Shown piece after piece: positions 2-30,496 of a DNA stretch of 32,000 nucleotides. Origin of the DNA: Sedimentisphaera cyanobacteriorum (GTDB lineage Bacteria > Planctomycetota > Phycisphaerae > Sedimentisphaerales > Sedimentisphaeraceae). Both the position numbers and the translations under genes were made by a program. The stretch covers positions 990,001 to 1,022,000 of the forward strand of contig NZ_CP019633.1 of NCBI RefSeq assembly GCF_001997385.1, in the 5' to 3' direction. The notes under the pieces are model-generated. The model saw only the letters and a program-made list of their open reading frames with translations, searched no databases and had not been told where the DNA came from. Position 1 is the first letter of the stretch, and the number at the start of each line of letters is the position of its first letter.

Positions 2-1468
2 GAGGTGGGCGAGGGAAGCCTTCTGCTCAAGCTTTTGAAGAAATGGCACGGACTAACCGAAAGAATTTCTAAAATCGCCTTCAAGAAGGCAAAAGAAATG
101 CTTGCAAACGGTGAACTGCTTGAGCAGGTAAACTCCATGAGTCCTGTAGAGAGGGAGCTGATTATATATTCAGCTCTTATAAATAAATCCAAAAATTTTG
201 ATTCCTTTATTATCGCCTCAGCTGCGGACGTTTCTTATCAGAGCAAGGTAATCAATTACGCAGCGGCAGCGAAGCTGATAGGCCAAAACGATGAAAAGGC
301 ATTCGACTATGCCACCAAAGCAATTAAGCTGAAAGACAATTTCAAGAAGATGTATCCTGCAATAACGGATTTGAATATCTACACTACCGCTGCTGCTGCC
401 GGATACGAAACGCTTAAATCGGGCACTGAAGCAGAGCAGGAAAGAGTGATTGAAATATTCGATAAGTACAAAGAGCTTGCTGGTGAGGATGCAGATGAAG
501 AAATATCTTTCCTCTATGCGGTTCAGCTCAAAGACAAAAGGCCAGAAGAATCATTGGCCACATTCAAAAAGACGCTCGAATCAGGCGGCAAATACAAAAC
601 TCAGGCACGATTTGAAATCCTCGTTTACAAATTCGAAAACGGAGAAACTGTTCTCGAGGAAATCCGAGAAATCTACGAAATGCTCGAAAGAGATGATGAC
701 CCCTATTTCTATGCTGATGTGATAGATTTGTACTCGCGTTCCCTGGCGGAAACAGGTAAATTAAACGAGGCTGCAGAGCTTCTCTATGACCAGCTCTCTT
801 ACGATATAACCCCCACCAAAGAATGTCTCAACTATGTGCTTCAAAAGTATATGACTGAAGCAGAGACATATTTTGAAAAGGCAGAATCAAGAGATACAGC
901 AGAAATACATATCTCTGAGATAGCAAGGTTTATAAGACGAAAATATGGCGATAATATGCCGGATCAGGTGCAGCTTGCATATCAGGAAGCGATAGCAATC
1001 TCAAGCAGCAGAGGCGATCTGAGTATGGAAGAATACTCCGAGCAGGTTACCAACGGCCTCAGCTACAACCGTGTACTTGCTCGTCAGCTTATGAATAAAA
1101 CTGAATATGTAGAAGCAGCTGCGATTTGGGGAAAAATAGCGAGGAGCCTTGCCTCACAGGGAGAATTTGATCCTTGGCGTTGGTCTCGGGCGAAGTTTTA
1201 CCAGATAAAATGCGGCCTTTCCAGCCCTGAACTCAGCAAGGAAGATAAAATACACTCTTTTGACGTGCTCGAATCAGATCCGAAATGGGATAATGATTTC
1301 TGGAAGAACAAACTTAAAGAACTCAAGCCCGACTATGTTAAAGAGGCTCAAAAGCAGGCAGAGATCGAAAGGCAGAAACAGCGATCCACGGAGCCTCCTG
1401 AAGCAAATCCAGAATCACCAGCTGAAGAAAAGAGCGAGAATGAGCAAACAGGTTCTGAAAATAGATGA
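2..1468 (+). CDS. hypothetical alpha-helical repeat protein (5'-partial), with acidic/Pro/Ser-rich low-complexity C-terminal tail
   Basis: The long ORF is open to the window edge (codon 2-4 is in frame). The GTG at 5 sits directly on GGAG with no spacer, so it is not a credible start. Composition is Leu/Glu/Lys/Ala-rich and helix-like, with no hydrophobic TM segment and no catalytic motif I recognise. The stop at 1466-1468 lies 29 nt inside the next gene. Confidence 0.6.
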   Translation, partial: EVGEGSLLLKLLKKWHGLTERISKIAFKKAKEMLANGELLEQVNSMSPVERELIIYSALINKSKNFDSFIIASAADVSYQSKVINYAAAAKLIGQNDEKAFDYATKAIKLKDNFKKMYPAITDLNIYTTAAAAGYETLKSGTEAEQERVIEIFDKYKELAGEDADEEISFLYAVQLKDKRPEESLATFKKTLESGGKYKTQARFEILVYKFENGETVLEEIREIYEMLERDDDPYFYADVIDLYSRSLAETGKLNEAAELLYDQLSYDITPTKECLNYVLQKYMTEAETYFEKAESRDTAEIHISEIARFIRRKYGDNMPDQVQLAYQEAIAISSSRGDLSMEEYSEQVTNGLSYNRVLARQLMNKTEYVEAAAIWGKIARSLASQGEFDPWRWSRAKFYQIKCGLSSPELSKEDKIHSFDVLESDPKWDNDFWKNKLKELKPDYVKEAQKQAEIERQKQRSTEPPEANPESPAEEKSENEQTGSENR

Positions 1469-3658: not shown

Positions 3659-4882
3659 CTACATATTAAAACCCGGCAAATAAGCCTGCTGAGGGCTGCC
3701 AACCATACGCGGTGAACCACGTGCTGTCCCACAGGCAGCCATAACGCTAAAAACATCCAGCCGGCTGAATAATACACCCCTCAGTAAAGTAAACAACCGG
3801 CTGAATGCTCCTTTCCACTGACCGAGGAAACCTATATACCTTATTAAAATATAAGCCAGCATAGCCGTCCATACTTGCCATAGAATTGCTTTTTGGCTAT
3901 GCCCTAGGAAATCGCTTAGCTGCAAAGTCTGTTTTATCTGCTTGAAAAACATCTCTATACCCCAGCGGCACTTATATAGGTCGCAAATACTGCTCGGCGC
4001 CCACTGCATATTGTTCGTGATAAATTTCATAAGCTTTTTCTCGCCGTTAATTTCCACATAAGCCTTAACTAAACGGAGCTTCTTCGGGTATGCCTCGCGG
4101 CTTTTCGGCATTTCAAGTTCAATTAAAGCATCGTATTGGATATTACCTTTTGGTTCTGTATTCTGTTTAACAAAACGATATTTCATATTATCTTTGGCTC
4201 TGGTAACCCAGAATAATTCTCGCCTGTCAAGATCTGCTAGATGCTTAAAATCCACGTAAGCCTTGTCAAAAACCGCTATTTCGCCGCTTTTAAGGTCCTG
4301 ACAGAGCTGATAAGCTTCTGTCGAATCATGGGTTGAGGCTTCTTTTACAATAGCAAATTGAGGCAGGAACGTCTGGAGATTCAGCTGCATATGGCACTTT
4401 GCAGCCGCTTTTCGTCTGCGATGTTTAGCCCAGTCAATACAGTTGGCTACAAGCTGGATCGTGGTTGAGTCAACCGCATATATTGCTCTCTTAAAACGCC
4501 TCGGAAGGCCGGAATACTTATGGCCTCTCCCAAAATCAAGATGTTTGTTCTGGATATGGGACAGCACCTCCCAGAAGAGAGTCTCTGCCATAAGAGGATC
4601 TCGAACCCTGTTTGCATGAGAAAGCCCATTCCTGCTTGGAGGGGTTGCACGGCGGATAGGAGTCAAAGCTCCAGAATGATTACGCAATGTGTCGGAAACG
4701 TCGTTGAGCGAGAGACTGTGAGCAATCTGGACATGAAGCATAGATACAATGTGCGACCAGCAAGAAAATGTTCGTGATTGCTTGTCAATACCGAAAGACC
4801 GAGACAATTTTGAAACAAGATGTGCAGGAATATGTTGGCATATTTGCTTAAGAATGCTATATTGATGTTTGGCGGGTGTCAT
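3659..4882 (-). CDS. IS4-family DDE transposase
   Basis: 407 aa; ATG at 4882 is preceded by AGGAG. Carries the IS4 signature Y-x2-R-x3-E-x6-K (YKCRWGIEMFFKQIK), with candidate catalytic Asp in AVDSTTI and VFDKAYVD. The N-terminal region resembles the DUF4372-type domain seen in this IS4 subgroup. Confidence 0.92.
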   Translation of the reverse strand: MTPAKHQYSILKQICQHIPAHLVSKLSRSFGIDKQSRTFSCWSHIVSMLHVQIAHSLSLNDVSDTLRNHSGALTPIRRATPPSRNGLSHANRVRDPLMAETLFWEVLSHIQNKHLDFGRGHKYSGLPRRFKRAIYAVDSTTIQLVANCIDWAKHRRRKAAAKCHMQLNLQTFLPQFAIVKEASTHDSTEAYQLCQDLKSGEIAVFDKAYVDFKHLADLDRRELFWVTRAKDNMKYRFVKQNTEPKGNIQYDALIELEMPKSREAYPKKLRLVKAYVEINGEKKLMKFITNNMQWAPSSICDLYKCRWGIEMFFKQIKQTLQLSDFLGHSQKAILWQVWTAMLAYILIRYIGFLGQWKGAFSRLFTLLRGVLFSRLDVFSVMAACGTARGSPRMVGSPQQAYLPGFNM

Positions 4883-6477: not shown

Positions 6478-6515
6478 AAAAGATTAAGCCGCTCAAACAG
6501 GAGCAGCTGTTTTTT

Positions 6516-8009
6516 TTACGCAGTAAAAACCTTTACAGCAGAGGGAAGGACTTCTATCTCAAGCGGGAGTTTCGGGCCGGGGTCTCCATCAATCTGCGAT
6601 ACAACGCTCCCGCCAAGCGAGGAGATTGATATACTCCGGCACTGCCTGTAGATATTCTCGCTGCAGTAGCTGTTCATCTGGAAGAGGCTCATTACGATAT
6701 ATCTGAGCAGGTCGTTTTTGTTGTCGCACGGCATAATGCATAAATCAAGCAGGCCGTCGTTGTAATCGGCTTCTCTGAGTATCCGCATACCGGTGGCGTA
6801 GCGGGATATATTTCCAATAAAGAGAATCGCCTTCCCTGCAAAAACTTCCTCTCCGTCTGCCGAGACTCTTATATTAGGAATCTCGTGGCTCCAGAATGCC
6901 TTCCATGCAGGCCAGAGATAATCGATATGAGTTATATTGCCCTTCCGTGTTTTCGAAAGCATCTCTACTGTCTCAGCATCGTAGCCGATTCCGAGAACTG
7001 AGGTGAAGGTAATCCCGTTTACTTTGGCAACATCAAGATTGCGGAGCCTTCCTTCATTGAGTATCTTTTTGTAATGCTCAAGGTTTCTCAGATACCCGAG
7101 CTCTTTGGAGAGCAGGTTTTCCGTGCCCCCGGGGATAAGCATCAAGGGCTTATCCTTTCCGCAGACCGCATCTATAGAGCATCTTACAGTGCCATCGCCT
7201 CCGCATACAACTATAAGAGAGCAGTTCTCCTCACCGGCAAGCTCCTCGAGAGATAACTTAATTTTCTTAAACGATTTGGAATCATAGAATTGAGTGTCAA
7301 GCCCACGCCTAGTGAAACAGTCATAAACCTGCTCAGCAAGCTTTACAGATTCGCCCGAGCCTGAACTGCGGTTGACAACAAAGGCGATTTTTCCGGAAAG
7401 CGGGGCAATCTCCTGCGTTTCTTTCCCGCTGATTATTTCGGAAATGGTATCAAAGAAAAAGCTCCTCTTATCGATACCCTTTTCTTCGCATGCCTTCACT
7501 ACTGCCTCTGCATAAGAGCATCGCTCGGGAGGAAGAGATAGGCCGAGCTCCCTGCATACTGAATTTATGCTCTGTTCATTTTGTCCCTCAATTTCAACAA
7601 AATCGCCTAAATGCGGGAGCGTGTCGATACATATCAGGCAGTTTTGAAAATGCCAGTGGAAGCGTTTTTTATCGAATGCAAGTTTTGTTGTATATCCAAG
7701 CCCATTGAGAATGCTCAACATTTCCTGAAAGTTATCTATTCTGGTCTCGTTTTCGGTTCTTGTTTTAATTTGTGAATCTTGGCGTTTACCCTTTAAGCAA
7801 AGCCAGATGACGGTTTTGCCGGAATTCAGATCTGTTTCTTCTCTCAGCCGAAGCGATTCTCCACGGGAGAATAGTGAGCCGGGATGGTCATCGAAATAAT
7901 AATCCCTTTGAAGCACTGAACTTCCAAGCGCAGCACCTTTTCTGCTCAGTTTATCGAGGAATATCGAGAGTGAATCGAGCTTTGCTTTGTATTCAATTTC
8001 CGTGCTCAT
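6516..8009 (-). CDS. fusion protein: N-terminal CYTH (CyaB/ThTPase-like triphosphate tunnel) domain + C-terminal diacylglycerol-kinase-fold (DAGK_cat/YegS-like) kinase domain
   Basis: Single 497-aa ORF. Residues 1-~180 carry the CYTH signature: EIEYK (ExExK), RDYYFD, LRLRE, CLKGK, RTENETR, KKRF, GDFVEIEG. Residues ~205-497 carry VVCGGDGT, LIPGGTENLL, and IDGDP near the C-terminus, as in YegS/BmrU/DgkB-type kinases. The ATG overlaps the upstream HAD stop (ATGA). Confidence 0.85.
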   Translation of the reverse strand: MSTEIEYKAKLDSLSIFLDKLSRKGAALGSSVLQRDYYFDDHPGSLFSRGESLRLREETDLNSGKTVIWLCLKGKRQDSQIKTRTENETRIDNFQEMLSILNGLGYTTKLAFDKKRFHWHFQNCLICIDTLPHLGDFVEIEGQNEQSINSVCRELGLSLPPERCSYAEAVVKACEEKGIDKRSFFFDTISEIISGKETQEIAPLSGKIAFVVNRSSGSGESVKLAEQVYDCFTRRGLDTQFYDSKSFKKIKLSLEELAGEENCSLIVVCGGDGTVRCSIDAVCGKDKPLMLIPGGTENLLSKELGYLRNLEHYKKILNEGRLRNLDVAKVNGITFTSVLGIGYDAETVEMLSKTRKGNITHIDYLWPAWKAFWSHEIPNIRVSADGEEVFAGKAILFIGNISRYATGMRILREADYNDGLLDLCIMPCDNKNDLLRYIVMSLFQMNSYCSENIYRQCRSISISSLGGSVVSQIDGDPGPKLPLEIEVLPSAVKVFTA

Positions 8010-8737
8010 AGCAGAAGTCCTCCAATATCTTCAAGAGAATCGATTACTTTTCCAGGCAGATACTCTTCGGGCAGAGATTCTTTGCAGTTAATATTCTTCG
8101 GAGCTGTTATCATTATCGTATGCCATCCGATATGGTTCGGGGCTTTGAAATCTTTTTCCGGATTATCTGCGATGTACACGCATTCCTCCGGCGTAAAACC
8201 GCCCTTCTCTGCAATCATATAAAATGCCTTCGGCGCAGGCTTCCAGAATTTTCTTCCCAGTTTCTCAGTGCAGATTATATAATCAAAAAAGCCCTTGATC
8301 CCCAGCGACTCAATCTTTAATTCCTGAGCGGGAAGGAAGCCGTCTGTAATAAGATCAAGAGTATATTTGTTTTTGAGCTTACTGAGCAGATTCGCTGCGG
8401 CCTGAGGCAGAGATATCTCCGGACTGTGAGCCCTGTATTTTTCAACCATTTGGCCTATAAGCTCTTTGGAATAGTCCGTTCCGAGATTTTCAAGAGCCCT
8501 GTTAAAAACTCTGCTGTCGCTGGCTTGATTAAAGCTTTCGATAAGCGTTTCAGTGAGAGCGGCCTGCGAGACCCCAATTAACGGGGCAAATTGCTGTCCG
8601 AGTGCTTTAAAGCCGCTGAGGCAGTATTCCCTTTCTGGATAGAGGGTGTCGTCCAGGTCAAAAACCACGCATTTGATTCTATGTTTGTCAGTCAAATTTA
8701 AAGTCCCTAACAACAAACTGAGGCCTTTTTTCGCCAT
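8006..8737 (-). CDS. HAD-superfamily hydrolase (subfamily IA-like phosphatase)
   Basis: HAD motif I VVFDLDDTLY, motif II LDLITDG, motif III Lys (FWKPAPK), motif IV YIADNPEKD. The start is ambiguous: ATG at 8746 or 8737 (both overlap the recJ 3' end), or TTG at 8695 (TTGACTGA, 8-nt overlap with the recJ stop, AGGGA 9 nt upstream). The track start at 8848 is almost certainly too long. Confidence 0.8.
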   Translation of the reverse strand: MAKKGLSLLLGTLNLTDKHRIKCVVFDLDDTLYPEREYCLSGFKALGQQFAPLIGVSQAALTETLIESFNQASDSRVFNRALENLGTDYSKELIGQMVEKYRAHSPEISLPQAAANLLSKLKNKYTLDLITDGFLPAQELKIESLGIKGFFDYIICTEKLGRKFWKPAPKAFYMIAEKGGFTPEECVYIADNPEKDFKAPNHIGWHTIMITAPKNINCKESLPEEYLPGKVIDSLEDIGGLLL

Positions 8738-10433
8738 TATACTCATTAAAAATTGGTTCAAAAGCAATAGAGAAATAATCGCTTTCGAGTAGTTTATTGT
8801 AATATGAAGCCATCTTAAAAGCAACACAGGGCATCCTGCCGCCGGCATCCCTTATCACAAAACGAAGATGCTCTCTGGTTGAACCGATTTTCTGCGGACT
8901 GCCCTCAAGCCTTACGCCTTTTGCGGCAAATACAGGACGGGGGTTGCCCTTTCCAAACGGGGCAATCTTCTCGAGCTGCTGAAATGTCCGAACGCTGAAG
9001 TTCTTAATACCGAACCAGCCTTCAAGCTCGAGCTTTTGTATGAGGATTTCGTCAGAGACGTTGTCTTTGGCATAATTCTCGAAATCTTCCACAAATCTCG
9101 GGAGATTTTCTGTTTCGATTGTGATGCCCGCTGCCTCGGAATGACCTCCAAATTTAACAAGATGATCTGAGCAGGCATTTATCGCATTCAGTATGTTGAA
9201 GCCTTCTATCGTTCGTGCTGAGCCGGTAGAAAGTTTGCCGTCTGAATTGAGCAGTATAGTAGGCTTGTAAAACTTCTCTATAATCCTTGAGGCCACAATA
9301 CCCACAATGCCAAGGTGCCACTCCTCGCCTGCAATTATAATGCTTCGCCGGTCTGGGTGGTCTAGGCCCGTGGCAGAGATAAGATGGGAGGCCTCCTTGA
9401 ATATTTTCTTTTCAATTTTTTTCCGCTGATTGTTCTGCTCTTTGAGATACTCAGCTATTCTCAATGCCCTGATCTCGTTATCTGTTGTGAGCAGTTCTAC
9501 TGCAAGCCTTGCATGCCCCATTCTGCCTGAGGCATTGAGCATTGGGGAAATCCTGAAGCTCAAATCAAATGTGTCAAGGGGCTTGCCGCTCAAGCCGGCT
9601 GCATTCATCAATGCCCTTACACCGGGCAAATTTGAAAGCCTAAGTGAATTTAGTCCGTAGCTGATCAGCGATCGGTTCTCCCCGGTTAGAGGCATCACAT
9701 CTGCCACTGTACCCAGAGAAGCGAAATCGGTGGAGATAAGCAGCAGATCCCTGCACTGCTTGTCTGAGAGGCCGCTGCCGCGATACTCCTCGCACAGCGC
9801 CCATGCAAGCTTCATCGCCACCATCGCTCCGCAAGATTTGGGGCTTGGATAATCATCGAGCATAGGGTGTATTACCGCCGAGGCAGATTCGGGCAGCTTT
9901 TCTTCGGGAACGTGATGATCTGTTATGACAACTTCCATCCCCAAACTGACTGCATAATCCACCTCCCTGCTGCTGCAAATTCCGCAGTCAACGGTTATGA
10001 GCAGTTCAGCCCCGCTCTGGGCGATTTCATCCAAGGCTGCGGTGTTAAGGCCGTAGCCCTCTTCTATTCTGTGAGGTATATAGAAGTTGTATTTTGCCCC
10101 CAGAGCATCAAAAATCCGGCAAAGGATAGAAGTGGCTGTTATTCCGTCAACATCATAATCGCCGTAAACAAAGATCTTTTTGCAGTCCTTAACCGCTTCA
10201 GCTATCTTCTCTACAGCCGCCTCCATCTGAGAAAAACGCTCGGGAAGAATCAAATCTTTCAGTGAAGGCTTGAGAAATTTTTTCGCCTCTTCCTGCTCTG
10301 TAATCTTCCGGTTTATAAGCACCTGAGCAACAGCGGGAGTAACACCGAGCTCAGAGCAAACATCTTTTATCCTGTCATTGTCAACGTCTTTGACCTGCCA
10401 TTTTTTCTCTATATTGCTGAGTTTATTTTTCAT
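8688..10433 (-). CDS. recJ: single-stranded-DNA-specific exonuclease RecJ
   Basis: DHH-family motifs VYGDYDVDGITA, ITVDCG, VITDHH; DHHA1 motif GGHSEAAG; length and layout match bacterial RecJ. The first ATG is at 10433; the track start at 10445 is TTG. Confidence 0.92.
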   Translation of the reverse strand: MKNKLSNIEKKWQVKDVDNDRIKDVCSELGVTPAVAQVLINRKITEQEEAKKFLKPSLKDLILPERFSQMEAAVEKIAEAVKDCKKIFVYGDYDVDGITATSILCRIFDALGAKYNFYIPHRIEEGYGLNTAALDEIAQSGAELLITVDCGICSSREVDYAVSLGMEVVITDHHVPEEKLPESASAVIHPMLDDYPSPKSCGAMVAMKLAWALCEEYRGSGLSDKQCRDLLLISTDFASLGTVADVMPLTGENRSLISYGLNSLRLSNLPGVRALMNAAGLSGKPLDTFDLSFRISPMLNASGRMGHARLAVELLTTDNEIRALRIAEYLKEQNNQRKKIEKKIFKEASHLISATGLDHPDRRSIIIAGEEWHLGIVGIVASRIIEKFYKPTILLNSDGKLSTGSARTIEGFNILNAINACSDHLVKFGGHSEAAGITIETENLPRFVEDFENYAKDNVSDEILIQKLELEGWFGIKNFSVRTFQQLEKIAPFGKGNPRPVFAAKGVRLEGSPQKIGSTREHLRFVIRDAGGRMPCVAFKMASYYNKLLESDYFSIAFEPIFNEYNGEKRPQFVVRDFKFD

Positions 10434-10774
10434 TCTAAGCTGCAAAACGCTTTCATTTTCTGAACAAAGTTACCAAACGGCTTATTATATTGATTACGTG
10501 CAAATCTTCCAGTTTTCAGGCAAAGCAGTTGAATCTGTCGTTCAGAGATTTATTTCCTGGTATAATTGTAAAACTTTGTGCTCAATAGTTCTTTTCGAAA
10601 CACGAAACACCCTAATGGCACGAAGAATGTGCGTATATTCTTTATTGACATGACTTTACACACTATATTAAATCTGCGTGCAATCTGTGTATAATATTGT
10701 TCGATACGAAATGAATTTGGGTGGCAAAATTCATTTTTTTACTTCGTGATGAAGAATGGACTAAAACATCAGTT

Positions 10775-11350: not shown

Positions 11351-13063
11351 CTACCGGCCGTCGTTCAGGTTCAAAACAGGCTCCTTGAGTACAGACCAGC
11401 AGTAGTTAATAGTTCGTCTATCAGCAGGTACAGCTGTTATCACAGTTAGGAAATGATCTGAAGGCTTAATAGAGACATCAATATCGCAGGGCTGGTCTTT
11501 TGGTGTCTGGGCCTTCTTCTGAAATTCCTGCTCGCCGTCCAGCAGAACATATATGTCGCAGGATGGAATTTTTATTTCTGAGAAGTTTTTATTTGTTTTT
11601 AGTTTGGAGTTGTCAAATATTGTATCGGAAAGGCCGAACTGGGCTGTAAAGCTGCTGAGAGCCGCATCACCATAAGCCTCTCTGATTCTGCTTAAATCGA
11701 AGGTAATTCCCTGATTTGGATGGATGAAAATACCCTTAGTTTTTGGGAAGCTCAAAATCTCGCCGGCAAGGCTTAGATTATGCTTGAAAACCTCAGGATT
11801 TTCAAAATGAACTGCACCATTAAGAATCCCACCCCAATAACGGCCTGAAGTCTTAAAGAAATCCCTAAAAGTATGTCCTTGCGAAGTAATCTTAACTTCT
11901 CCATCCTCAGCGCCTGGCACAAACACTCCATCAACAAACGGCAAATCCTTTACAGAATTGTATTTATTCGACTTTGATTTCTTCATTAGCATACGAAGTG
12001 TTCTTCTCTGTCCAAAGCGGCCGTTGAGCGAATTAAGCCCAAAGCCCTGCTTACCAGACCCAAGCCCGTTTCCTCCGCCTACAATATCAGCCAAATCAAT
12101 CTGTTTTTCCCCCCGCCAGACTATCTGGGAGTTTTCGTTGAAATGGCGGGCAAACTTATTTTTCTGCAAATCAATTTTTTCAACAGCTAAAGACTCCTGC
12201 GACACCTTGCATGCCATACTTTCAACAACATCGAACGCAGTATTATTCAGCCAGCCCTTGCTGCTTATAAGCCTTGTTTTCCCGCTGAATACGTGGAGCT
12301 GAGAACTGCCCTGCTTATCAGCCGATACGCCGAATTCTGTGCCAAGGTCAACAACTCTTGAATTATCAGTGGAAACCGCAAAGCCCACACCTTCCACCGG
12401 GACTTTTGAATAAAGGCTTCCGTAATCAAGGTTAACCTCTGAAATGCTGGAAAAACGGAATTCAGCAGGTCCTTCGACCACCAGCTTCACGCCCCTGTCG
12501 GTTTTGAATTCAGCAAGGCCTTTTTTAAGCTGAATATTCTCTAAGCCGGTATAAACTGAATCCTGTTTTTTGAAAGACTGCCTACCCCATTCAGCCTTAT
12601 AGGTGTCAGTAATAGTTGCAGCCCTTTTCATTTCAGGCACAAACAAATTCGCATATATCAGCAGAAAAATTATTGCTGCCGCAGATACAGCACCTGAAAC
12701 AACTGTAATCCAGCTGATGTTTCTCGGCTGTTTCTGCACCGAAGAGGGATAGTTCTTTTCTTTCAGCTCAGCTGCCTTAGGCTTCTTTTCTCTGCGGGAA
12801 ACAGCGGGTGCATATTTTTCATACCAAGCAAGCTCTGCGAGCACGTTGAGACAGTTCTCCTGTGAGAAGCTGTCATGCTCGCCTACATTACCTCCGATAG
12901 AATTAAGCGAGCTGCAAACCTGAATGTATTCTCTGTAAAAGTCTCTTGCCTGCTTTTCCGAGGCAAGGATTTCATTCAGCCGGTCTCTGTGCTGCTCGGT
13001 AAGCATACCGTTTATTGAACTTTCGATAAGGAGGCTGAGCTCTTTGAACTTTTGCTGGTTCAT
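11351..13063 (-). CDS. FecR-family transmembrane anti-sigma factor with large extracytoplasmic C-terminal domain
   Basis: N-terminal anti-sigma helix region, one TM helix (ISWITVVSGAVSAAAIIFLLIYANLF), then a FecR-like beta domain (GLAEFKTDRGVKLVVEGPAEF...VDLGTEFGV), then ~250 aa of uncharacterised beta-rich sequence. ATG at 13063 lies 1 nt after the upstream sigma stop, with GAGAGGG ~10 nt upstream. Confidence 0.85.
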   Translation of the reverse strand: MNQQKFKELSLLIESSINGMLTEQHRDRLNEILASEKQARDFYREYIQVCSSLNSIGGNVGEHDSFSQENCLNVLAELAWYEKYAPAVSRREKKPKAAELKEKNYPSSVQKQPRNISWITVVSGAVSAAAIIFLLIYANLFVPEMKRAATITDTYKAEWGRQSFKKQDSVYTGLENIQLKKGLAEFKTDRGVKLVVEGPAEFRFSSISEVNLDYGSLYSKVPVEGVGFAVSTDNSRVVDLGTEFGVSADKQGSSQLHVFSGKTRLISSKGWLNNTAFDVVESMACKVSQESLAVEKIDLQKNKFARHFNENSQIVWRGEKQIDLADIVGGGNGLGSGKQGFGLNSLNGRFGQRRTLRMLMKKSKSNKYNSVKDLPFVDGVFVPGAEDGEVKITSQGHTFRDFFKTSGRYWGGILNGAVHFENPEVFKHNLSLAGEILSFPKTKGIFIHPNQGITFDLSRIREAYGDAALSSFTAQFGLSDTIFDNSKLKTNKNFSEIKIPSCDIYVLLDGEQEFQKKAQTPKDQPCDIDVSIKPSDHFLTVITAVPADRRTINYCWSVLKEPVLNLNDGR

Positions 13064-13064
13064 A

Positions 13065-13589
13065 CTAATAACCCTCTCTTTCAAGGGTGTTTCTAACGCA
13101 CTTTATCAGATTGAAGTGAATTCTGGAGAAGCTCCTGAAAATAGACTGAATAGACCGCCCTGTTTTTTCGGCAATTTCGCGGAGTTTCATACCTTCGAAA
13201 TAACGCATATCAATAAGGCGACAGTCTTTGGCATTCTGCTTTGACACGCAGGACTTTAATGCTTCAATTTTTTTATCAAGTTCATTCTGCTGTTCTTGAG
13301 CCTCTTCTGCGAGCAGTTCGAATACCTCGGTTGTAAAGACAGACTTGCGTCTCTTCTTTCGGTAGTATTTCAGACATTCATATTTTGCAATTTGGGCAGC
13401 CCAAGAAACGAAATCGGAATCAGGTCTGAAACTGTCGAATTTCTGAAGCATTATTACTGAGGTGTCCTGCATAATATCATCTGCATCCGCCTTGTTGGGA
13501 ACAAGGGTAAAGATAAAATTGTAGATGCGGGGATAGTGCGCAGTTAGAAGATTTGTAAACTCTTTAGTTTTTGAAGATTTATTACTCAT
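13065..13589 (-). CDS. ECF-type RNA polymerase sigma factor (cognate of the FecR anti-sigma)
   Basis: Region 2 DADDIMQDTSVIMLQKF...FVSWAAQIAKYECLKYYRKK and region 4 MKLREIAEKTGRSIQSIFRSFSRIHFNL. Directly precedes the anti-sigma gene. Confidence 0.88.
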   Translation of the reverse strand: MSNKSSKTKEFTNLLTAHYPRIYNFIFTLVPNKADADDIMQDTSVIMLQKFDSFRPDSDFVSWAAQIAKYECLKYYRKKRRKSVFTTEVFELLAEEAQEQQNELDKKIEALKSCVSKQNAKDCRLIDMRYFEGMKLREIAEKTGRSIQSIFRSFSRIHFNLIKCVRNTLEREGY

Positions 13590-25421: not shown

Positions 25422-28400
25422 TTATTCAGCTGTTATTTCAGAATAGGGATTACTGCTTTTCAGCCACTGCGAACAAAATGAACGCAAATTCTGGAGTGAA
25501 TAATCCCACTCTGAAATAAAGAGGGCGTAGTCCTCAATATCAACGAAGCAGTCCTGATTAAGATCTGAATCGTGATATCCCCAAGCCCCGCACTGATAAT
25601 GCAAAAACTCTGATGGCTTAAGGGCCTTGCTGGAGAATTTTATATCATCTATAAACCCGCTTACATGGTCAACTTGGGAGCCATCGAACCAGCCCCGGCC
25701 TACTGTCCAATTGTGCCCTGCTGCTGAGAGGGAATTGTCGCTGCCGGGATTTAAAGATAAAGTGCCTGCAAGCTGTGAGCCGTTTCCGTCGAGCTTATCT
25801 GCATAAAGCTTCAGGGTGCTGCCGTCTGAAACGGCTGCAATGCAGTACCATTTTCCTGCCTGAGCAGCAAAATCAGAATCCAACACATAGCGATGCCCGC
25901 CGGCGGTATCGAAGTTCACACGGAATTTGTTGTCGATGCCGTTTTTCTGTAGATAAAAATCAGACTCAGCCTCTCCATGGGATGAGCCGTCTTTGCCTAT
26001 AAAGGTCTGCCAGCCGCTGATACTGTCAAGCTTCACAGCGCACTCAACAGTCCACTGCTCAGGAGCCCAGTTGTTTATGCCTGCATTATTCGTGTAGGCG
26101 TCCTGACCGCCATTCAACCTGCAGCTGAGACCGAGCCCGCTGGGAGTCTGGCCTGTCTGTGAGAATGATGGGCCGTAAGTATCGTCCCAAGCATACAGTT
26201 CATAGCCGTTACCAGACAAATCGGCCGCGCAGGGCTGTCCGGTTTGGCCGGTATTATTCATTGCAGCTCCGGGAGTACCTCCATCGAAATTCCAATGCGC
26301 TGCAACATAAGTATCCAGCTCTACATCAGTTCTTACTGTTGCAAAATCTTTAGCTCCAGCTGAGTCTTCTACTGAAAAAATAAAATAATTCATTCCGGCA
26401 TTTGAACTTTCAGGACTGCCGGAAGCCTGGCCTTGAGAGTTAATGCTGAGCCATTGAGGGCCTGAAATCTTATGGAAAATCAGATTATCGCCGCTGTCGT
26501 TTTGCGAGACATAAGCTGAAAGGTCAAAAGAAAAATTCTCATCAACAAAACAGCTTCCCATATCAATTTCCTTAAGATTGAATTGAGGAGGGCTGTTGCT
26601 CATAAGTTTTTCAATTTCCACTGCTGAAAAAGCGGCATCTGAAATTATCACATCATCAAGGATGCCGGAAAAGAGAGGGTCTGCTGAGAAATTGCTCTTT
26701 CCGAGATAATTTTTCGAAGCAGAGATGTCCGAGGGATTCAATGTTATACTCTCACTGGCCTCAAGGCTGCCGTTGATGTAAAGCCTGCCGGTATCGTCAT
26801 CCAATACAACTGCAACATGCGTCCACTCATTTACAGGAAAAGCTCCTGATTCGAGTCTCTTTTCGCCGTTATATCCAGACTGGGTAATCGAGAAGCGCAT
26901 CTGACTGCTGTAGGTAGAAGGTGTTATAAACATATAATTATCTGTATTATTGCCGAAATCAAAAATCCTCTGCCACTTCTCACCTCCGTCCCAGTAAACC
27001 CATGCGGCAAAAGTGAAATCATCACTGCCGGCTATATTCTCCGGAAGAACGAGGTAATCATCTTTGCCGTCTAAAGCGAGGCAGTCTGCAAAACTTTCGG
27101 TTTCAAGGGCGGGCGCTCCGTAAACTAGCGGATTATTCCCTTCCCCGGAGCTGTCAAGAAAGCTGCCGCTGAAGTAATAGGCAGCTCGTGAAGGCTTCTG
27201 GAAATCAGGTGTCTGCTGCTGAAAGCCCACTTTCGATTTTCTGTTTTTGTAAACCTCGCCGGCAGGTGTGAGCGAGCCGTCATCCCTCTGAACCCTTCTC
27301 ACATCTTCCACCCAATTGTATATGGCGTATCTCTCCACCCATGGAGTGTTCTCCATCATATCAATCATAGCAGATATCGCATCTGCCTGCTGCTGGTATG
27401 TGGGGTCTGGGCAGTCTGTCCAGTTTGCGCCGTTATTCCATTCAGTTACCCATATCGGTCGTCCTGTCTGGTCGTGAATATTCTTCATGTAGTTGTACAT
27501 CTTCTCAGCAGCGCCCGCCGGGTCCTGCGGATTTCGACAGCGGTAGTAATGCACTGCCACAAAATCCACCCTGAGGTTTTCCGAGTCAGCCTGCTGCATA
27601 AAAGGCACAAGCCATGAATTCACTCCTCCATCTGTAACTGCAGGTGAACCAACTCGCAGACCGGTTGAGAGCAGATCAGGCCAAGACCATATCGCATCCC
27701 CCACTGCAATATCGCTCTGCGAAGAGCTGTCCGGTTCGTTATATCCGAGCAGATGCGAAGAGCCTCTGGATTGCCAGTCCTGCCCCAAGCCCGGCCACCA
27801 GCGGTTCTGCCGAATCGGTACATACTCCTTATCGAGCGTAGAAGTTTCGCTTATGTTCCAGTTGTAAGACCAACCAATATCCAAATTACTTCCAATTCCG
27901 CCTGCGATACCTTTTTTCGGCGTCCATCGCCATGGGAAGATTCGCGCAAAATTCACATTCCCGTCCAGCTCGGGCGGAAGAGAGCCTATAAGCAGATCGC
28001 AGTCTTGAGCAACGTAGTTTTTACTGAAGCCGCTGCCGTCTTCGTTCTGTGCTAATGTGACAGTGTAGCCTCTTTTGAGAATGAACGAACTTGCCTGAGA
28101 CGAAAGCTGCCCCAGAGAGCCTGAATTATAATTAACGTATTGGGCAAGCTCAGCAGACCTGCCGAGAAAGTTCTCCTCTGCGAAAAGCTCCAAAGGCTTG
28201 AACCCCTGAGAATGGGGTATTATAACAGCCCCTGATTCATACTGAACCACCCGCACATTTTCATTCAATACAGCATCCTCACCTGAAACTTTTATCTGAG
28301 AGAGGTAAGCTGAATCCGAGGCCTGCGAAGGCTTGATCCCTTCAAGAAAAACAAACGCGTCCTCCGAATTCAGATTAATTTGGCAGTTTGAAAGCACAGA

Positions 28401-30401
28401 CGAACCGCCTGTTAGATGGAGCTCTGAGAGGCAGGAGAGATTTACTGTTTCATCAGAAAGACTTGGAAAAGTGAGTATGTCGTTTTCAATAGTAATCTGA
28501 TCGGCCTGAGAAGCTGCATCAACAATCTGGATATTCGGCTTTGGAGGGTCTGTCATACCTTCGCCGAGATAATAATCCAGCTGATGAGACTGCATATAAC
28601 CCTTTACTGTCATACTGTTTCTGTACGCAGGATTGTGCGGGAGAGTGTATAGGCGTTTGTCTGTTTGGATATCTGTTGTAAAAATAACCAGCTCTGTGTA
28701 GTCTGGGTTTGTCATTATAGCCTCTTCACGCCAGTCGCCCCAAATATCACCATAAAACATTGGAGCTCCCCTGTAGCTGTGGGTTGCTCCGTGGTAATGC
28801 CAAGTAGTAACAATTCGAGACATCCAGCTGTTATTGCAGTCCCACTGTTCGATTTTGCCGTCATTGAAGTTCTCACTTAGAAGATCCCCATCCCACCAAA
28901 GCCTAAGGCATGGCCATGGCTGTTCTCCGGGAGATGTAATTTGCTGCCCGGTTGGCCCGTTCCAAACTCCGCTGAATGCCCACACCTCATAGCCCGGGCT
29001 GCGAGGGTCTATATCAGCCGCCTCCCCTCGGCCTACATCCCCCGGGGATTCGGAATGCTGCCATAAAATTTCTCCATTGCTCGGGTCGAAGTAGAAAAAC
29101 TGCAGACCGCTTGGATTGTCCTGCTGGACGGCATACCCGTTTAATCCGCTGGATGTCGGATCAAATTTGCCAATGTGAAATCTGTCTCCATGCACTACGC
29201 CCGAATCATGGAGGTCGTATAAAAGTGTACCGTCGCTTTCCAGTCCAAAACCGAGATGGAAAAATTCATCCTCACCATCCTGATCTGCATCCACTATCCG
29301 AATATTATGGCTGTCAGGACATACCCCGCCATAACCTCCATCAGGGCCTCTGAGCCATTTCCATTTTTGTTCAAGATTTTCGCCATCGAAATCCCAAGCG
29401 CAAACCATCATATTAAATTCACCGTCTCCAATGCGGTTTTTCATTGATGCAATAAGGCTGGGATTTATCCCGTCCAAATAACCAACGCCAAAATGGGCAG
29501 GCATCGGGCCGTCTGAGATGTAATCTGTTGGAATCTGTATGCGTGCCTCTTCTGAGCCCGTTTCTCCGTCGAGTATTGAAATGAACTGAAGATTATCATT
29601 AGAGGCTGATAAAGTTTCACCGTCCCCGAAAGTTACCCCGTTCGCAGTGCGCAGAGCAACTTCAGATTTGCCGTCACTATCCAAATCATAAACCGTAACT
29701 CCGTCCCAATGGCCTACATCAACAGCTGAAGAGCCCGGTTCAATATTATAGGTGTTTGTGCTGTTTGACCCTAAATCTGCGCTCCAGAGCAGCGTTCCAT
29801 CCTGCCTGTAAGCCTCAAGCTTCTGAGAGCGTCCTTCATTGTTGAGACGGTCAAGAACGAAATCGTATTCTCCGTCTCCATCGAGGTCTCCAACCCATAC
29901 AAAGTGAATTTTGTCGGTATTACCGCTGCTGAGCGGTACTACTATGCAAGGCTCCTCAAGAGCGCCCGATTCAATAGTGAATGGCTTGCTCTTCTGCTTT
30001 TCCTGCCCGTTTATTACAGTCTTAACATAATAGCTGTTGTCTTTCTGGGCATCAGCATCTGTATCAGTATAGCAGGTTGCGCCGGTTAGGACGGAAGAAT
30101 TCAGCTTAACTGCCTCGCTCCCGTCAGCCGAACGATAGATATTAAACCCGATATCGACAGGGTCAACACCCAAAAGGCGCCAGCTTATGAAAACACCGCC
30201 GCTTGTTCTTACTGCTGCTACTCCCCTGCCGAGATTCTCCATTTTGCGTTTTGGAGTAACAGAATGCTTTTCCGTGAAGCCAGATTTTTCTGTTTCCGCC
30301 TGAGCAATTCCTGCTGAACAGGCTGGCAGAAGGGGGATTCTGTGCATAACTGCCAGCGTAATCGCTGAAACGGCAAACAGCACAAAGAAAGCATACTTCA
30401 C
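25422..30401 (-). CDS. giant secreted multimodular polysaccharide-active protein: divergent PL11-like beta-propeller + beta-rich linker + GH clan-A 'Glyco_hydro_cc' (GH128-like) core + LamG + cadherin/Ig-like + LamG + dockerin-like repeat
   Basis: Start reassigned to GTG 30401, 8 nt downstream of GGAGG (30414-30410); the track start at 30416 is the TTG inside that RBS. The N-terminus is a hydrophobic signal with a possible lipobox-like LLPAC. Residue numbers follow the ORF track.
- aa ~59-625: YesW-like N-domain ENLGRGVAAVRTSGGVFISWRLLG plus propeller motifs VYDLDSDGKSE, YLDGINPS, GDIWGDWREE, VIFTT, RLYTLPHNPAYR.
- aa ~828-1058: WSYNW, LLGYNEPD, WVTEWN.
- aa ~1080-1272 and ~1370-1603: LamG/ConA-like (FTFAAWVYWDG...RIFDFG...WTHVAVV..LYINGSL; WTVECAVKLD...KWYCIAAVSDGSTLKLYAD).
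- aa ~1276-1365: Ig/cadherin-like.
- aa ~1615-1645: DLNQDCFVDIEDYALF. Confidence 0.85.
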   Translation of the reverse strand: MKYAFFVLFAVSAITLAVMHRIPLLPACSAGIAQAETEKSGFTEKHSVTPKRKMENLGRGVAAVRTSGGVFISWRLLGVDPVDIGFNIYRSADGSEAVKLNSSVLTGATCYTDTDADAQKDNSYYVKTVINGQEKQKSKPFTIESGALEEPCIVVPLSSGNTDKIHFVWVGDLDGDGEYDFVLDRLNNEGRSQKLEAYRQDGTLLWSADLGSNSTNTYNIEPGSSAVDVGHWDGVTVYDLDSDGKSEVALRTANGVTFGDGETLSASNDNLQFISILDGETGSEEARIQIPTDYISDGPMPAHFGVGYLDGINPSLIASMKNRIGDGEFNMMVCAWDFDGENLEQKWKWLRGPDGGYGGVCPDSHNIRIVDADQDGEDEFFHLGFGLESDGTLLYDLHDSGVVHGDRFHIGKFDPTSSGLNGYAVQQDNPSGLQFFYFDPSNGEILWQHSESPGDVGRGEAADIDPRSPGYEVWAFSGVWNGPTGQQITSPGEQPWPCLRLWWDGDLLSENFNDGKIEQWDCNNSWMSRIVTTWHYHGATHSYRGAPMFYGDIWGDWREEAIMTNPDYTELVIFTTDIQTDKRLYTLPHNPAYRNSMTVKGYMQSHQLDYYLGEGMTDPPKPNIQIVDAASQADQITIENDILTFPSLSDETVNLSCLSELHLTGGSSVLSNCQINLNSEDAFVFLEGIKPSQASDSAYLSQIKVSGEDAVLNENVRVVQYESGAVIIPHSQGFKPLELFAEENFLGRSAELAQYVNYNSGSLGQLSSQASSFILKRGYTVTLAQNEDGSGFSKNYVAQDCDLLIGSLPPELDGNVNFARIFPWRWTPKKGIAGGIGSNLDIGWSYNWNISETSTLDKEYVPIRQNRWWPGLGQDWQSRGSSHLLGYNEPDSSSQSDIAVGDAIWSWPDLLSTGLRVGSPAVTDGGVNSWLVPFMQQADSENLRVDFVAVHYYRCRNPQDPAGAAEKMYNYMKNIHDQTGRPIWVTEWNNGANWTDCPDPTYQQQADAISAMIDMMENTPWVERYAIYNWVEDVRRVQRDDGSLTPAGEVYKNRKSKVGFQQQTPDFQKPSRAAYYFSGSFLDSSGEGNNPLVYGAPALETESFADCLALDGKDDYLVLPENIAGSDDFTFAAWVYWDGGEKWQRIFDFGNNTDNYMFITPSTYSSQMRFSITQSGYNGEKRLESGAFPVNEWTHVAVVLDDDTGRLYINGSLEASESITLNPSDISASKNYLGKSNFSADPLFSGILDDVIISDAAFSAVEIEKLMSNSPPQFNLKEIDMGSCFVDENFSFDLSAYVSQNDSGDNLIFHKISGPQWLSINSQGQASGSPESSNAGMNYFIFSVEDSAGAKDFATVRTDVELDTYVAAHWNFDGGTPGAAMNNTGQTGQPCAADLSGNGYELYAWDDTYGPSFSQTGQTPSGLGLSCRLNGGQDAYTNNAGINNWAPEQWTVECAVKLDSISGWQTFIGKDGSSHGEAESDFYLQKNGIDNKFRVNFDTAGGHRYVLDSDFAAQAGKWYCIAAVSDGSTLKLYADKLDGNGSQLAGTLSLNPGSDNSLSAAGHNWTVGRGWFDGSQVDHVSGFIDDIKFSSKALKPSEFLHYQCGAWGYHDSDLNQDCFVDIEDYALFISEWDYSLQNLRSFCSQWLKSSNPYSEITAE

Positions 30402-30496
30402 AAGTTTTACCTCCAATTATTTATCGCTAATAACATTGCCTTTACGATCTTTAAGGCTCACAATTATTAAACCATTCCGCAATGAAAACCTTTGTT

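Follow-up and report, generated by a model that had tools for sequence, protein, structure and literature searches.

A CYTH triphosphate-tunnel module fused to a DgkB/YegS-type kinase in Sedimentisphaera cyanobacteriorum, and its split counterparts in other Planctomycetota

CYTH proteins, the triphosphate tunnel metalloenzymes (TTMs), are widespread in bacteria and structurally well understood; the inorganic triphosphatase activity seen in vitro has led to no pathway. Many of them are still misnamed adenylate cyclases, and the YegS/BmrU-type kinases of the diacylglycerol kinase (DAGK) fold are largely orphan enzymes. Here we report that both folds are joined in one protein of Sedimentisphaera cyanobacteriorum (Planctomycetota, Phycisphaerae, Sedimentisphaerales), encoded by an uninterrupted, ATG-initiated open reading frame (ORF) of 497 aa at positions 6516..8009 on the minus strand of a 32,000-nucleotide stretch of contig NZ_CP019633.1 (hereafter the window), and that in related planctomycetes the same two modules are usually encoded by adjacent genes. 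A preliminary description of this stretch had placed the ORF at the right coordinates but left its strand unstated.

The main described covalent joining of a CYTH/TTM module and a kinase is that of the plant proteins AtTTM1 and AtTTM2, which combine a P-loop kinase of the uridine/PRK type with a CYTH module and a transmembrane anchor; 'nucleotidyl kinase' fusions of CYTH were also listed by Iyer and Aravind (2002), as cited by Vogt et al. (2021, PMC8233210). In crystal structures of AtTTM1 the tunnel domain packs tightly on the fused P-loop kinase and is its proposed regulator (PMC9582702), and this clamp provides a precedent for a kinase controlled by its partner. The Sedimentisphaera fusion nonetheless differs in several respects. 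Its kinase is of an unrelated fold (DAGK/NAD-kinase instead of the P-loop family PF00485, for which a Pfam search of the fusion protein returned no match) and is C-terminal, with the domain order reversed relative to the plant proteins. In AtTTM1 the tunnel has no catalytic competence and the ExExK hallmark is missing, whereas the fusion keeps every catalytic residue, and AtTTM1/2 are eukaryotic and anchored to mitochondria. Among bacterial proteins, the YgiF-type CYTH-CHAD enzymes resemble the two-domain plan of the fusion in coupling a CYTH tunnel to a polyphosphate-linked second domain, but CHAD is a helical polyphosphate-binding domain and not a kinase-fold enzyme. More generally, the known partners in multidomain CYTH proteins are CHAD, PRK/uridine-kinase (in plants), HD, exopolyphosphatase and SPX-type domains, with no DAGK-fold partner among them (PMC8233210, PMC9582702).

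On the kinase side, the soluble DgkB of Staphylococcus aureus needs a separate protein with a nucleotide-cyclase-like domain, GdpS, at the membrane; the GGDEF domain of GdpS recruits DgkB, while other DgkBs use a hydrophobic alpha7 face (PMC11962490). DAGK-fold kinases can thus have dedicated protein partners, although GdpS is a membrane protein with a degenerate GGDEF and not a CYTH domain, and no fusion or operon coupling of GdpS and DgkB was seen. Full-text literature searches found nothing linking CYTH with YegS, DAG kinase or lipid kinase, in keeping with the preliminary description, which knew of no characterised protein of this architecture. The combination of CYTH and DAGK fold is undescribed in either form, operon pair or fusion, while both halves belong to well-known superfamilies.

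That a single ORF joins two modules, as originally proposed, is confirmed by Pfam profile searches, in which three domains scored above their curated cut-offs: CYTH (PF01928; 61.1 bits against 23.2, residues 3-146), DAGK_cat (PF00781; 68.1 against 23.6, residues 208-330) and YegS_C (PF19279; 56.1 against 27, residues 338-495). The motifs on which the proposal relied are all present, in the order and with the spacing given, namely EIEYK (4-8), RDYYFD (35-40), LRLRE (53-57), CLKGK (71-75), RTENETR (84-90), KKRF (114-117) and GDFVEIEG (135-142) in the CYTH half and GGDGT (270-274), PGGTEN (293-298) and DGD (474-476) in the kinase half. AlphaFold2 run on a mixed alignment returned a two-module model with a mean predicted local distance difference test (pLDDT) score of 92.4 and a predicted template modelling (pTM) score of 0.73. 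Most residues of the CYTH half exceed a pLDDT of 90, and the weakest region is the linker (71 for residues 181-190, 52 for residues 191-200). A Foldseek search of the PDB with the fusion model found no solved chain that holds both folds. Alignment to split orthologues traces the linker to a C-terminal extension of the CYTH protein and the former N-terminus of the kinase; there is no internal Met start where the ancestral kinase began, so that the kinase is produced solely as part of the fusion.

At 100% identity the protein matches the S. cyanobacteriorum protein in our set (P0001), whose database name is 'diacylglycerol kinase'; its orthologue in S. salicampi, at 84% identity, is listed as 'class IV adenylate cyclase' by NCBI and as 'lipid kinase BmrU' in UniRef. 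One orthologous protein therefore goes under three conflicting names, and each current label covers just one half of it.

The fusion is genuine. We recovered eight distinct fused sequences (42-84% identity) from independent assemblies: two complete isolate genomes, three contigs of metagenome-assembled genomes (MAGs), one JGI metagenome contig (also present in a Logan assembly and in a MAG) and one other Logan contig. The possibility that a sequencing, assembly or annotation error joined two genes, which the preliminary description had named as a threat to its case, was considered only since most relatives are split, and no evidence in its favour was found. Two complete isolate genomes share this unbroken ORF with MAG, JGI and Logan assemblies over that range of divergence, and the linker can be aligned among the fused sequences; the chance of a frameshift or assembly artefact is hence negligible. 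None of the outcomes that the preliminary description listed as refuting its case came about.

Fusions are nevertheless rare. When 1.84 billion cluster representatives were searched exhaustively with phmmer, the best 150 matches included only 2 full-length fusions; more distant, independent CYTH-DAGK fusions may exist beyond these. The 116 proteins retrieved with a 50-sequence CYTH profile were all stand-alone CYTH proteins, with no fusion among them, and a word-index search with the CYTH domain of the window alone gave no matches. The fusion had originally been called unusual, and this holds for the covalent joining but not for the pairing itself, which is common within one clade, as adjacent and translationally coupled genes in most Phycisphaerae examined.

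The nearest homologues of the kinase half are kinase-only proteins of ~314 aa from Sedimentisphaerales and other Planctomycetota. In Anaerohalosphaera lusitana, the CYTH gene (194 aa) precedes and overlaps the kinase gene (315 aa), with 4 bp in common. We scanned a single genome for each GTDB species, with a ranking that favoured in-frame CYTH-kinase pairs, and obtained at least 365 relatives; in the best 80 loci, all from planctomycete MAGs, a CYTH ORF lies directly upstream of the kinase in 77 and is fused to it in only 2. The split CYTH gene encodes about 175-225 aa (~185 aa) and the kinase gene ~314 aa, and most split loci show a stop-to-start spacing of 0-40 nt or an ATGA-type overlap. 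An independent metagenome sample, ranked in the same way, added 24 split pairs and zero fusions among its best 80 loci. CYTH-kinase adjacency is conserved in several hundred related planctomycete species. Among the more distant kinases of the metagenome scan (25-29% identity), 40 lie on contigs that extend far enough upstream, and none of these 40 is preceded by a CYTH gene; four CYTH relatives at greater distance, on two metagenome contigs and in Chloroflexota and Saccharibacteria, have no kinase neighbour.

The split pair usually forms part of a co-directional cluster, leuS-CYTH-kinase-kdsA-radical SAM-xerC, whose leuS, kdsA, radical SAM and xerC members were found as neighbours in 55-69 of 85 sources (84 loci and the window), kdsA itself in 69 loci. 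In the closest split lineage (L007:5183-7030, L061:7599-9392), genes for a cyclophilin and a glucokinase follow the kinase in place of kdsA, so kdsA linkage is not universal even for split pairs. The radical SAM protein (~312 aa) follows kdsA in 66 loci, ~0.9 kb downstream from the kinase gene (for example L066:6472-7410); no NCBIfam equivalog model fits it, the best scores being TYW1/MoaA/viperin-like at 35-43 bits.

Two features of the split pairs were followed up and discarded. The CYTH and kinase genes share a frame in 56 of the 75 split loci of the genome scan (L006-L060), with as little as one stop codon between them, and several same-frame pairs carry two or more in-frame stops. An in-frame stop with programmed read-through was rejected for the split species, the frame excess not being reproduced in the metagenome sample (6/13/5 by frame); because of this, the excess is best seen as a ranking artefact of single-HSP (high-scoring segment pair) tblastn. 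Likewise, a '(K/R)xEVFF' motif at the C-terminus of paired CYTH proteins was considered as a docking strand, but it occurs in only a subset of the paired proteins and also in unpaired relatives. The same-frame pairs with one stop do show that a single stop-codon change can create a fusion.

Which enzyme is the CYTH half? Its TTM residues comprise ExExK (4-8), S-x-R-x-R (52-56), K73, K82, R84, E86, K114, R116 and ExE (139-141), and the C-terminal helix carries S165-Y166-A167. Across 78 fused and split orthologues, the ExExK hallmark, E4-I-E6-Y-K8 in the fusion, is kept in every case; E4, E6, K8, R54, R56, K73, K82, R84, K114, R116, E139 and E141 are invariant, and E86 is kept in 77. The PDB sequence matches were SaTTM (7ns8, E 6e-12, the best), PH1819 and YpAC-IV (E 5e-4), and in a Foldseek comparison the AlphaFold2 model of the CYTH half superposed on SaTTM (7ns9) with a template modelling (TM) score of 0.85 and a root-mean-square deviation of 2.3 A. 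The modelled half accordingly has the predicted form of a tunnel whose beta-barrel has eight strands, with a basic lining and acidic metal ligands. SaTTM (Saci_0718), a member of cluster 3 in the sequence similarity network of Vogt et al. (2021), is the best match in both sequence and structure and has the same ExExK, small-x-R-x-R and ExE motifs, but at about 180-200 aa it stands alone, no kinase partner having been described for it, and its identity to the CYTH half is only ~25%.

Three features mark the class IV adenylate cyclases (AC-IV): HF placed four residues ahead of ExExK (HFxxxxExExK), a small neutral residue where x-R-x-R has its first Arg, an Arg that by one proposal would collide with the ribose in the orientation used by cyclases, and ExA in strand beta8, where the second Glu is replaced by Ala; thiamine triphosphatases carry W/Y-x-R-x-R, the remaining CYTHs are TTM phosphohydrolases, and the second-metal glutamate of ExE is tied to hydrolysis (Vogt et al. 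2021, PMC8233210). The HF motif is absent here, as only M-S-T precede E4 and three residues precede ExExK in 78/78 sequences. The first Arg, replaced in AC-IV, is kept as R54 in all 78, within S-L-R-L-R, and beta8 reads E139-I-E141, again ExE in 78/78 and not ExA. The aromatic residue of the thiamine triphosphatases is likewise missing: the position is S52 in the fusion, C/G/A/S in 77 of 78 and Asp in one. Since there is no room for HF, a small residue precedes R-x-R, and both Arg and ExE are kept, the motifs strongly support a two-metal, SaTTM-type triphosphate phosphohydrolase that is neither an adenylate cyclase nor a thiamine triphosphatase.

A coupling of cAMP synthesis to lipid phosphorylation, which the preliminary description had raised, would require the CYTH half to be a class IV adenylate cyclase. 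In its favour one may cite the NCBIfam model TIGR00318 ('cyaB'), which the protein matches with 64.9 bits, above the cut-off of 57.95, and the detectable relationship to YpAC-IV. TIGR00318 evidently takes in non-cyclase TTMs, however, which makes the cyaB name unreliable here. With all three AC-IV determinants of Vogt et al. (2021) absent throughout, and with SaTTM, the closest characterised relative, being a triphosphatase-type TTM from a cluster separate from the AC-IV cyclases, this coupling is disfavoured and we regard it as very improbable. The name 'Class IV adenylate cyclase' is unsupported for the fusion and for its split orthologues alike, which corrects the database labels. Many split CYTH partners are labelled 'adenylate cyclase class 2/IV' despite having no AC-IV-specific motifs.

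The kinase half has the two-domain fold of DgkB, BmrU, YegS and Rv2252 and shares their GGDGT and G-T-x-N motifs, and its DGD falls within the pattern D-G-(E/D). Besides GGDGT at 270-274, DAGK_cat carries P-G-GTENLL (293-300), and YegS_C carries DYLWPAWKAFW (363-373), GNISRYATG (399-407), DGLLD (418-422), a hydrophobic helix equivalent to alpha7 (431-443) and IDGDPGP (473-479). Among 85 sequences G-G-D-G is invariant (85/85) and T274 nearly so (83/85), and the motifs GGDGT, P-x-G-T-E-N-L-L, GNISRYAxG, DGLLD and IDGDPGP are all invariant or nearly so. As first suggested, both modules thus appear catalytically complete, their CYTH catalytic residues and the kinase motifs tested being invariant or nearly so in fused and split forms. 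Foldseek gave target TM scores of 0.67-0.84 to DgkB, BmrU, YegS and sphingosine kinase 1 (SphK1), with 0.79-0.83 to DgkB (2qv7/2qvl) and 0.74-0.84 when BmrU, an Enterococcus faecalis DAGK-cat protein and YegS are included. The family model TIGR00147 (YegS/Rv2252/BmrU) scores 93.5 bits for the fused protein, below its cut-off of 118.65, while the split A. lusitana orthologue just passes at 121.1; equivalog models (DgkB, YegS, MamU and others) are far below cut-off. An identity as NAD kinase was rejected, as PF01513 reaches 22.1 bits against 25.5 and covers only residues 260-302 around GGDG, and the NCBIfam NAD kinase models give 16-22 bits against cut-offs above 300.

These data strongly support, at the level of motifs, an ATP-dependent kinase that has the soluble DAG-kinase fold and keeps every nucleotide-binding motif. 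By sequence it is a distinct subfamily of soluble DAG/lipid kinases. It differs from DgkB, BmrU, YegS and Rv2252 in having GTENLL and not GTxND, DGD and not DGE, and a Trp-rich helix, WPxW(R/K)xFW, common to the subfamily; its members also have either an Arg-rich tail (split) or an N-terminal CYTH (fused), whereas the characterised DgkB/BmrU/YegS proteins have no CYTH partner. In DgkB, the hydrophobicity of the exposed positions of alpha7 decides whether the enzyme binds membranes unaided (PMC11962490). These positions map to N432, L435, V439 and L442, three of the four hydrophobic, and the helix resembles that of membrane-binding DgkB orthologues. On account of this helix, the Trp-rich helix and the kdsA and AsmA-like neighbours (the latter described below), the substrate is probably a membrane-interfacial lipid.

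We built neighbour-joining, distance-based trees of both domains. The eight fused sequences belong to the family Sedimentisphaeraceae and its close relatives; in the kinase-domain tree, 200/200 bootstraps group them to the exclusion of every other sequence. Fused monophyly was not recovered with the CYTH domain (17/200), yet no sequences other than L007 and L061 fall among the fused ones, and by the kinase tree too these two are the nearest split relatives; the group of fused sequences plus these two was supported in 75/100. The CYTH tree therefore seems uninformative about a single origin, not contradictory, and is compatible with one fusion. The CYTH domain is shorter and evolves faster than the kinase domain.

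A second character distinguishes the fused forms. In 73 of 77 split kinases, the protein ends in a 17-residue, Arg-rich tail, with the consensus (E/P)G-A-K-P-A-G-I-R-T-R-(I/L)-x-R-(A/M)-(I/L)-G, in which G7 and R9 are invariant and R14 is kept in 72/73; it is found in 0/8 fused forms, where YegS_C ends without it. The tail corresponds to the last 17 codons of the unfused kinase genes (L005-L085, L090-L115). In the AlphaFold2 model of an unfused kinase it is a short helix of lower confidence. Its role as an amphipathic membrane-targeting helix is unsupported, as the hydrophobic moment (muH) of the last 11 residues, 0.44, hardly differs from the shuffled median of 0.43. The fused gene also lies outside the leuS cluster. 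We hold with high confidence that the fusion arose once, from two neighbouring genes in one lineage, with the two-gene arrangement retained by most anaerobic Phycisphaerae/Sedimentisphaerales as the ancestral state, and that the enzyme classes are as given above. Four changes would then have occurred on one branch: the two genes became one ORF, the tail was lost, the leuS context was left, and coupling to an upstream gene for a HAD phosphatase was gained.

What, then, might the pair do? The explanation we favour, to which as a whole we give slightly better than even chances, is a lineage-specific fusion of a conserved pair whose two proteins act together as a complex. A 1:1 complex appears most likely because the two genes are adjacent and co-translated in several hundred species of a class-level clade and could be fused without loss of catalytic residues. 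The two proteins would sit as such a complex at the inner face of the membrane, where the tunnel module would bind and hydrolyse a triphosphate ligand (inorganic triphosphate (PPPi), short polyphosphate (polyP) or a nucleoside triphosphate). Its open or closed state would gate or support the lipid kinase, such that envelope-lipid phosphorylation would track phosphate or energy status; this specific mechanism, by which the tunnel module gates or supports the kinase, we advance tentatively, as less likely than not. Where the genes are split, the Arg-rich tail would hold kinase and partner together, a function that the fusion would make redundant, and the HAD phosphatase would supply the opposing or the next dephosphorylation step. 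A still bolder version, which we consider unlikely, is a clade-wide system of anaerobic Phycisphaerae in which an active tunnel enzyme is the obligate partner of an envelope-lipid kinase and either switches it or gives it tri-/polyphosphate as a phosphoryl source. Were it true, a bacterial stand-alone CYTH enzyme would for the first time have a physiological role and a partner protein, and polyphosphate status would be linked directly to membrane-lipid composition.

Several points weigh against a gated complex. The activities of both halves are read from sequence and predicted structure, and the interdomain geometry of the fusion model rests on its pTM. The invariant metal-binding Glu residues imply a working enzyme and not a mere sensor, so that a metabolic coupling fits at least as well. 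The housekeeping neighbours leuS, kdsA and xerC may reflect inherited synteny only, kdsA is missing from the sister split lineage, and the AsmA-like matches are far below curated cut-offs. The mapping of alpha7 comes from an alignment of ~21% identity. In a HMMER alignment with S. aureus DgkB, the 'DGE' of that enzyme aligns to D474-G-D476, a conservative exchange of Glu for Asp that is invariant in 85/85 sequences; the Glu of DGE (Glu273) is the residue that Miller et al. in 2008 reportedly assigned as the catalytic base of DgkB. No measurable amphipathic character was seen in the tail, whose binding partner is a proposal of ours. Finally, the loss of the tail, the fusion, the relocation and the gain of the HAD gene constitute one correlated event, and hence provide no independent replication.

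The main rival to gating is a sequential coupling, in which kinase and tunnel phosphohydrolase, joined by the HAD enzyme in the fused clade, would act in turn on one phosphorylated molecule or its by-product. The tunnel could trim a tri- or polyphosphorylated product, or it could clear side products of the PPPi or pyrophosphate (PPi) type that chelate the Mg2+ of the kinase ('metabolite proofreading'). Invariance, or near-invariance, of the metal- and phosphate-binding tunnel residues in 78 sequences does point to catalysis and not just binding, and in 8/8 fused loci translational coupling links three enzymes of phosphoryl transfer or hydrolysis. A proofreading role has been suggested for PPPases because PPPi strongly chelates divalent cations, and SaTTM prefers PPPi and is inhibited by PPi (Vogt et al. 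2021). Yet the DAGK-fold reaction, from ATP to ADP, gives no known triphosphate product or by-product, and the HAD gene is absent in the split lineages, which outnumber the fused one by far; this rules it out as a required step of the ancestral pathway. Nor do we know of any triphosphorylated lipid. We therefore see a sequential module as a serious but rather unlikely alternative. The pair could also be unrelated neighbours, co-transcribed within the leuS-kdsA cluster and fused by a neutral loss of a stop codon or intergenic sequence; leuS, kdsA and xerC are after all functionally heterogeneous housekeeping genes, the spacing is so tight that a small mutation is enough, and some split pairs lie in frame with a single stop between. 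Such an accident is hard to reconcile with a pair that moved as a unit when it left the leuS context and whose association outlasts the change of every other neighbour. The near-invariant tail was lost exactly at the fusion, which suggests a functional interaction, and the fusion persists across a clade in which identity falls to 42% and neither half has lost a catalytic residue. We consider an accident improbable.

A kinase driven by triphosphate or polyphosphate would be a more radical departure, the CYTH half handing a phosphoryl group, or PPPi or polyP as donor, to the DAGK-fold site of an ATP-independent lipid kinase. The DAGK_cat/NAD-kinase fold includes polyP-using NAD kinases, TTM folds act on polyP in both directions (Vtc4 synthesises it), and there is a report of PPPi as an alternative phosphodonor in a membrane phosphorylation system. 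The fusion, however, keeps the full GGDGT nucleotide-binding signature and its match to the NAD_kinase profile is weak (22.1 bits, below 25.5), the tunnel retains the second-metal E141, tied to hydrolysis by Vogt et al., and no channelling of a phosphoryl donor from a TTM to another active site is known. This puts it among the least probable of the couplings considered, if above the cyclase. The two other couplings of the preliminary description, triphosphate handling or sensing that feeds phosphotransfer and a CYTH domain acting as a regulatory module, are both still plausible.

Whatever the mechanism, two genes that stay paired and are also fused in nature provide strong comparative evidence for joint action of their products. 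The pairing gives bacterial CYTH enzymes a conserved and testable partner, and with it a handle on the physiological role of TTMs, and it flags the Arg-rich tail as a candidate interaction motif.

Table 1. Positions in the window of the fused gene, its parts and its immediate neighbours.
Feature	Coordinates	Strand	Evidence
Complete fused gene (497 aa and stop): CYTH/TTM module, linker, DgkB/YegS-type kinase	6516..8009	-	ORF, Pfam, identity to P0001
CYTH / triphosphate-tunnel module, about aa 1-178	7476..8009	-	Pfam, PDB sequence matches, Foldseek, conservation in 78 sequences
Linker, about aa 179-205	7395..7475	-	low pLDDT, alignment to split orthologues, junction analysis
DAGK_cat nucleotide-binding domain, aa 208-330	7020..7388	-	Pfam (68.1 bits), motifs in 85 sequences
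YegS_C beta-sandwich domain, aa 338-495	6525..6998	-	Pfam (56.1 bits), DgkB alignment, motif conservation
HAD-IA phosphatase gene	8006..8743	-	Pfam HAD_2, NCBIfam TIGR02253-like, PDB relatives
recJ (DHH/DHHA1/RecJ_OB)	8688..10445	-	Pfam
Terminator-like hairpin and T-run	6487..6508	-	consensus match

The HAD-IA phosphatase gene lies immediately upstream in 8/8 fused loci, its stop codon overlapping the start of the fusion (in the window, TGA over ATG, as ATGA). It matches Pfam HAD_2 with 69.6 bits and NCBIfam TIGR02253 with 105.9 bits, below the cut-off of the latter, and its closest PDB relatives are PH0459, N-acylneuraminate-9-phosphatase and YfnB. The longest ORF starts at 8848, but the lengths of its orthologues (227-245 aa) and the sequence make the ATG at 8743 the probable start, from which the gene overlaps the 3' end of recJ by ~55 nt (overlap with the longest ORF, 8688..8848, minus strand). 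No HAD gene was found next to the split pairs in the loci examined, the sister lineage included, and a HAD phosphatase as ancestral third component was accordingly rejected. The recJ gene precedes HAD only in the sub-lineage of Sedimentisphaera, P0003 and P0004 and is absent in L004, L006 and L171. In the window, recJ, HAD and the fusion apparently form one transcription unit with recJ first. The hairpin begins 8 nt past the fusion stop, a position that fits an operon end before the convergent sulfatase gene; it is a consensus match, and the number of such sites in the region is not above that in shuffled sequence.

In the deeper fused sub-lineage, the start of a gene for a ~1060-aa protein overlaps the fusion stop (L004:5437-8625, L006:7524-10730, L171:5568-8723). 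This protein has an N-terminal membrane anchor and no Pfam match at normal thresholds; its three orthologues weakly match the AsmA model NF008091 of NCBIfam (E 9e-5 to 3.5e-8), and single ones also YhdP or TamB, so that it may be a divergent AsmA-like lipid-transport protein.

Elsewhere in the window, an IS4-type DDE transposase gene (DDE_Tnp_1 and DUF4372; 3659..4882, minus strand) separates the sulfatase gene from two ABC-ATPase genes. It looks like a strain-specific insertion sequence, because in S. salicampi (L001) the sulfatase and ABC genes are adjacent without it. The ORFs at 5..1468 (plus strand, 487 aa) and 11351..13084 (minus strand, 577 aa) have no Pfam match at E<=1e-5, and a 1664-aa ORF occupies 25422..30416 (minus strand). 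Genes for polysaccharide utilisation abound in the remainder of the window, among them those for a sulfatase, a GH3 protein with a PA14 domain, an alpha-L-arabinofuranosidase, an FGGY sugar kinase and an AraC-type regulator.

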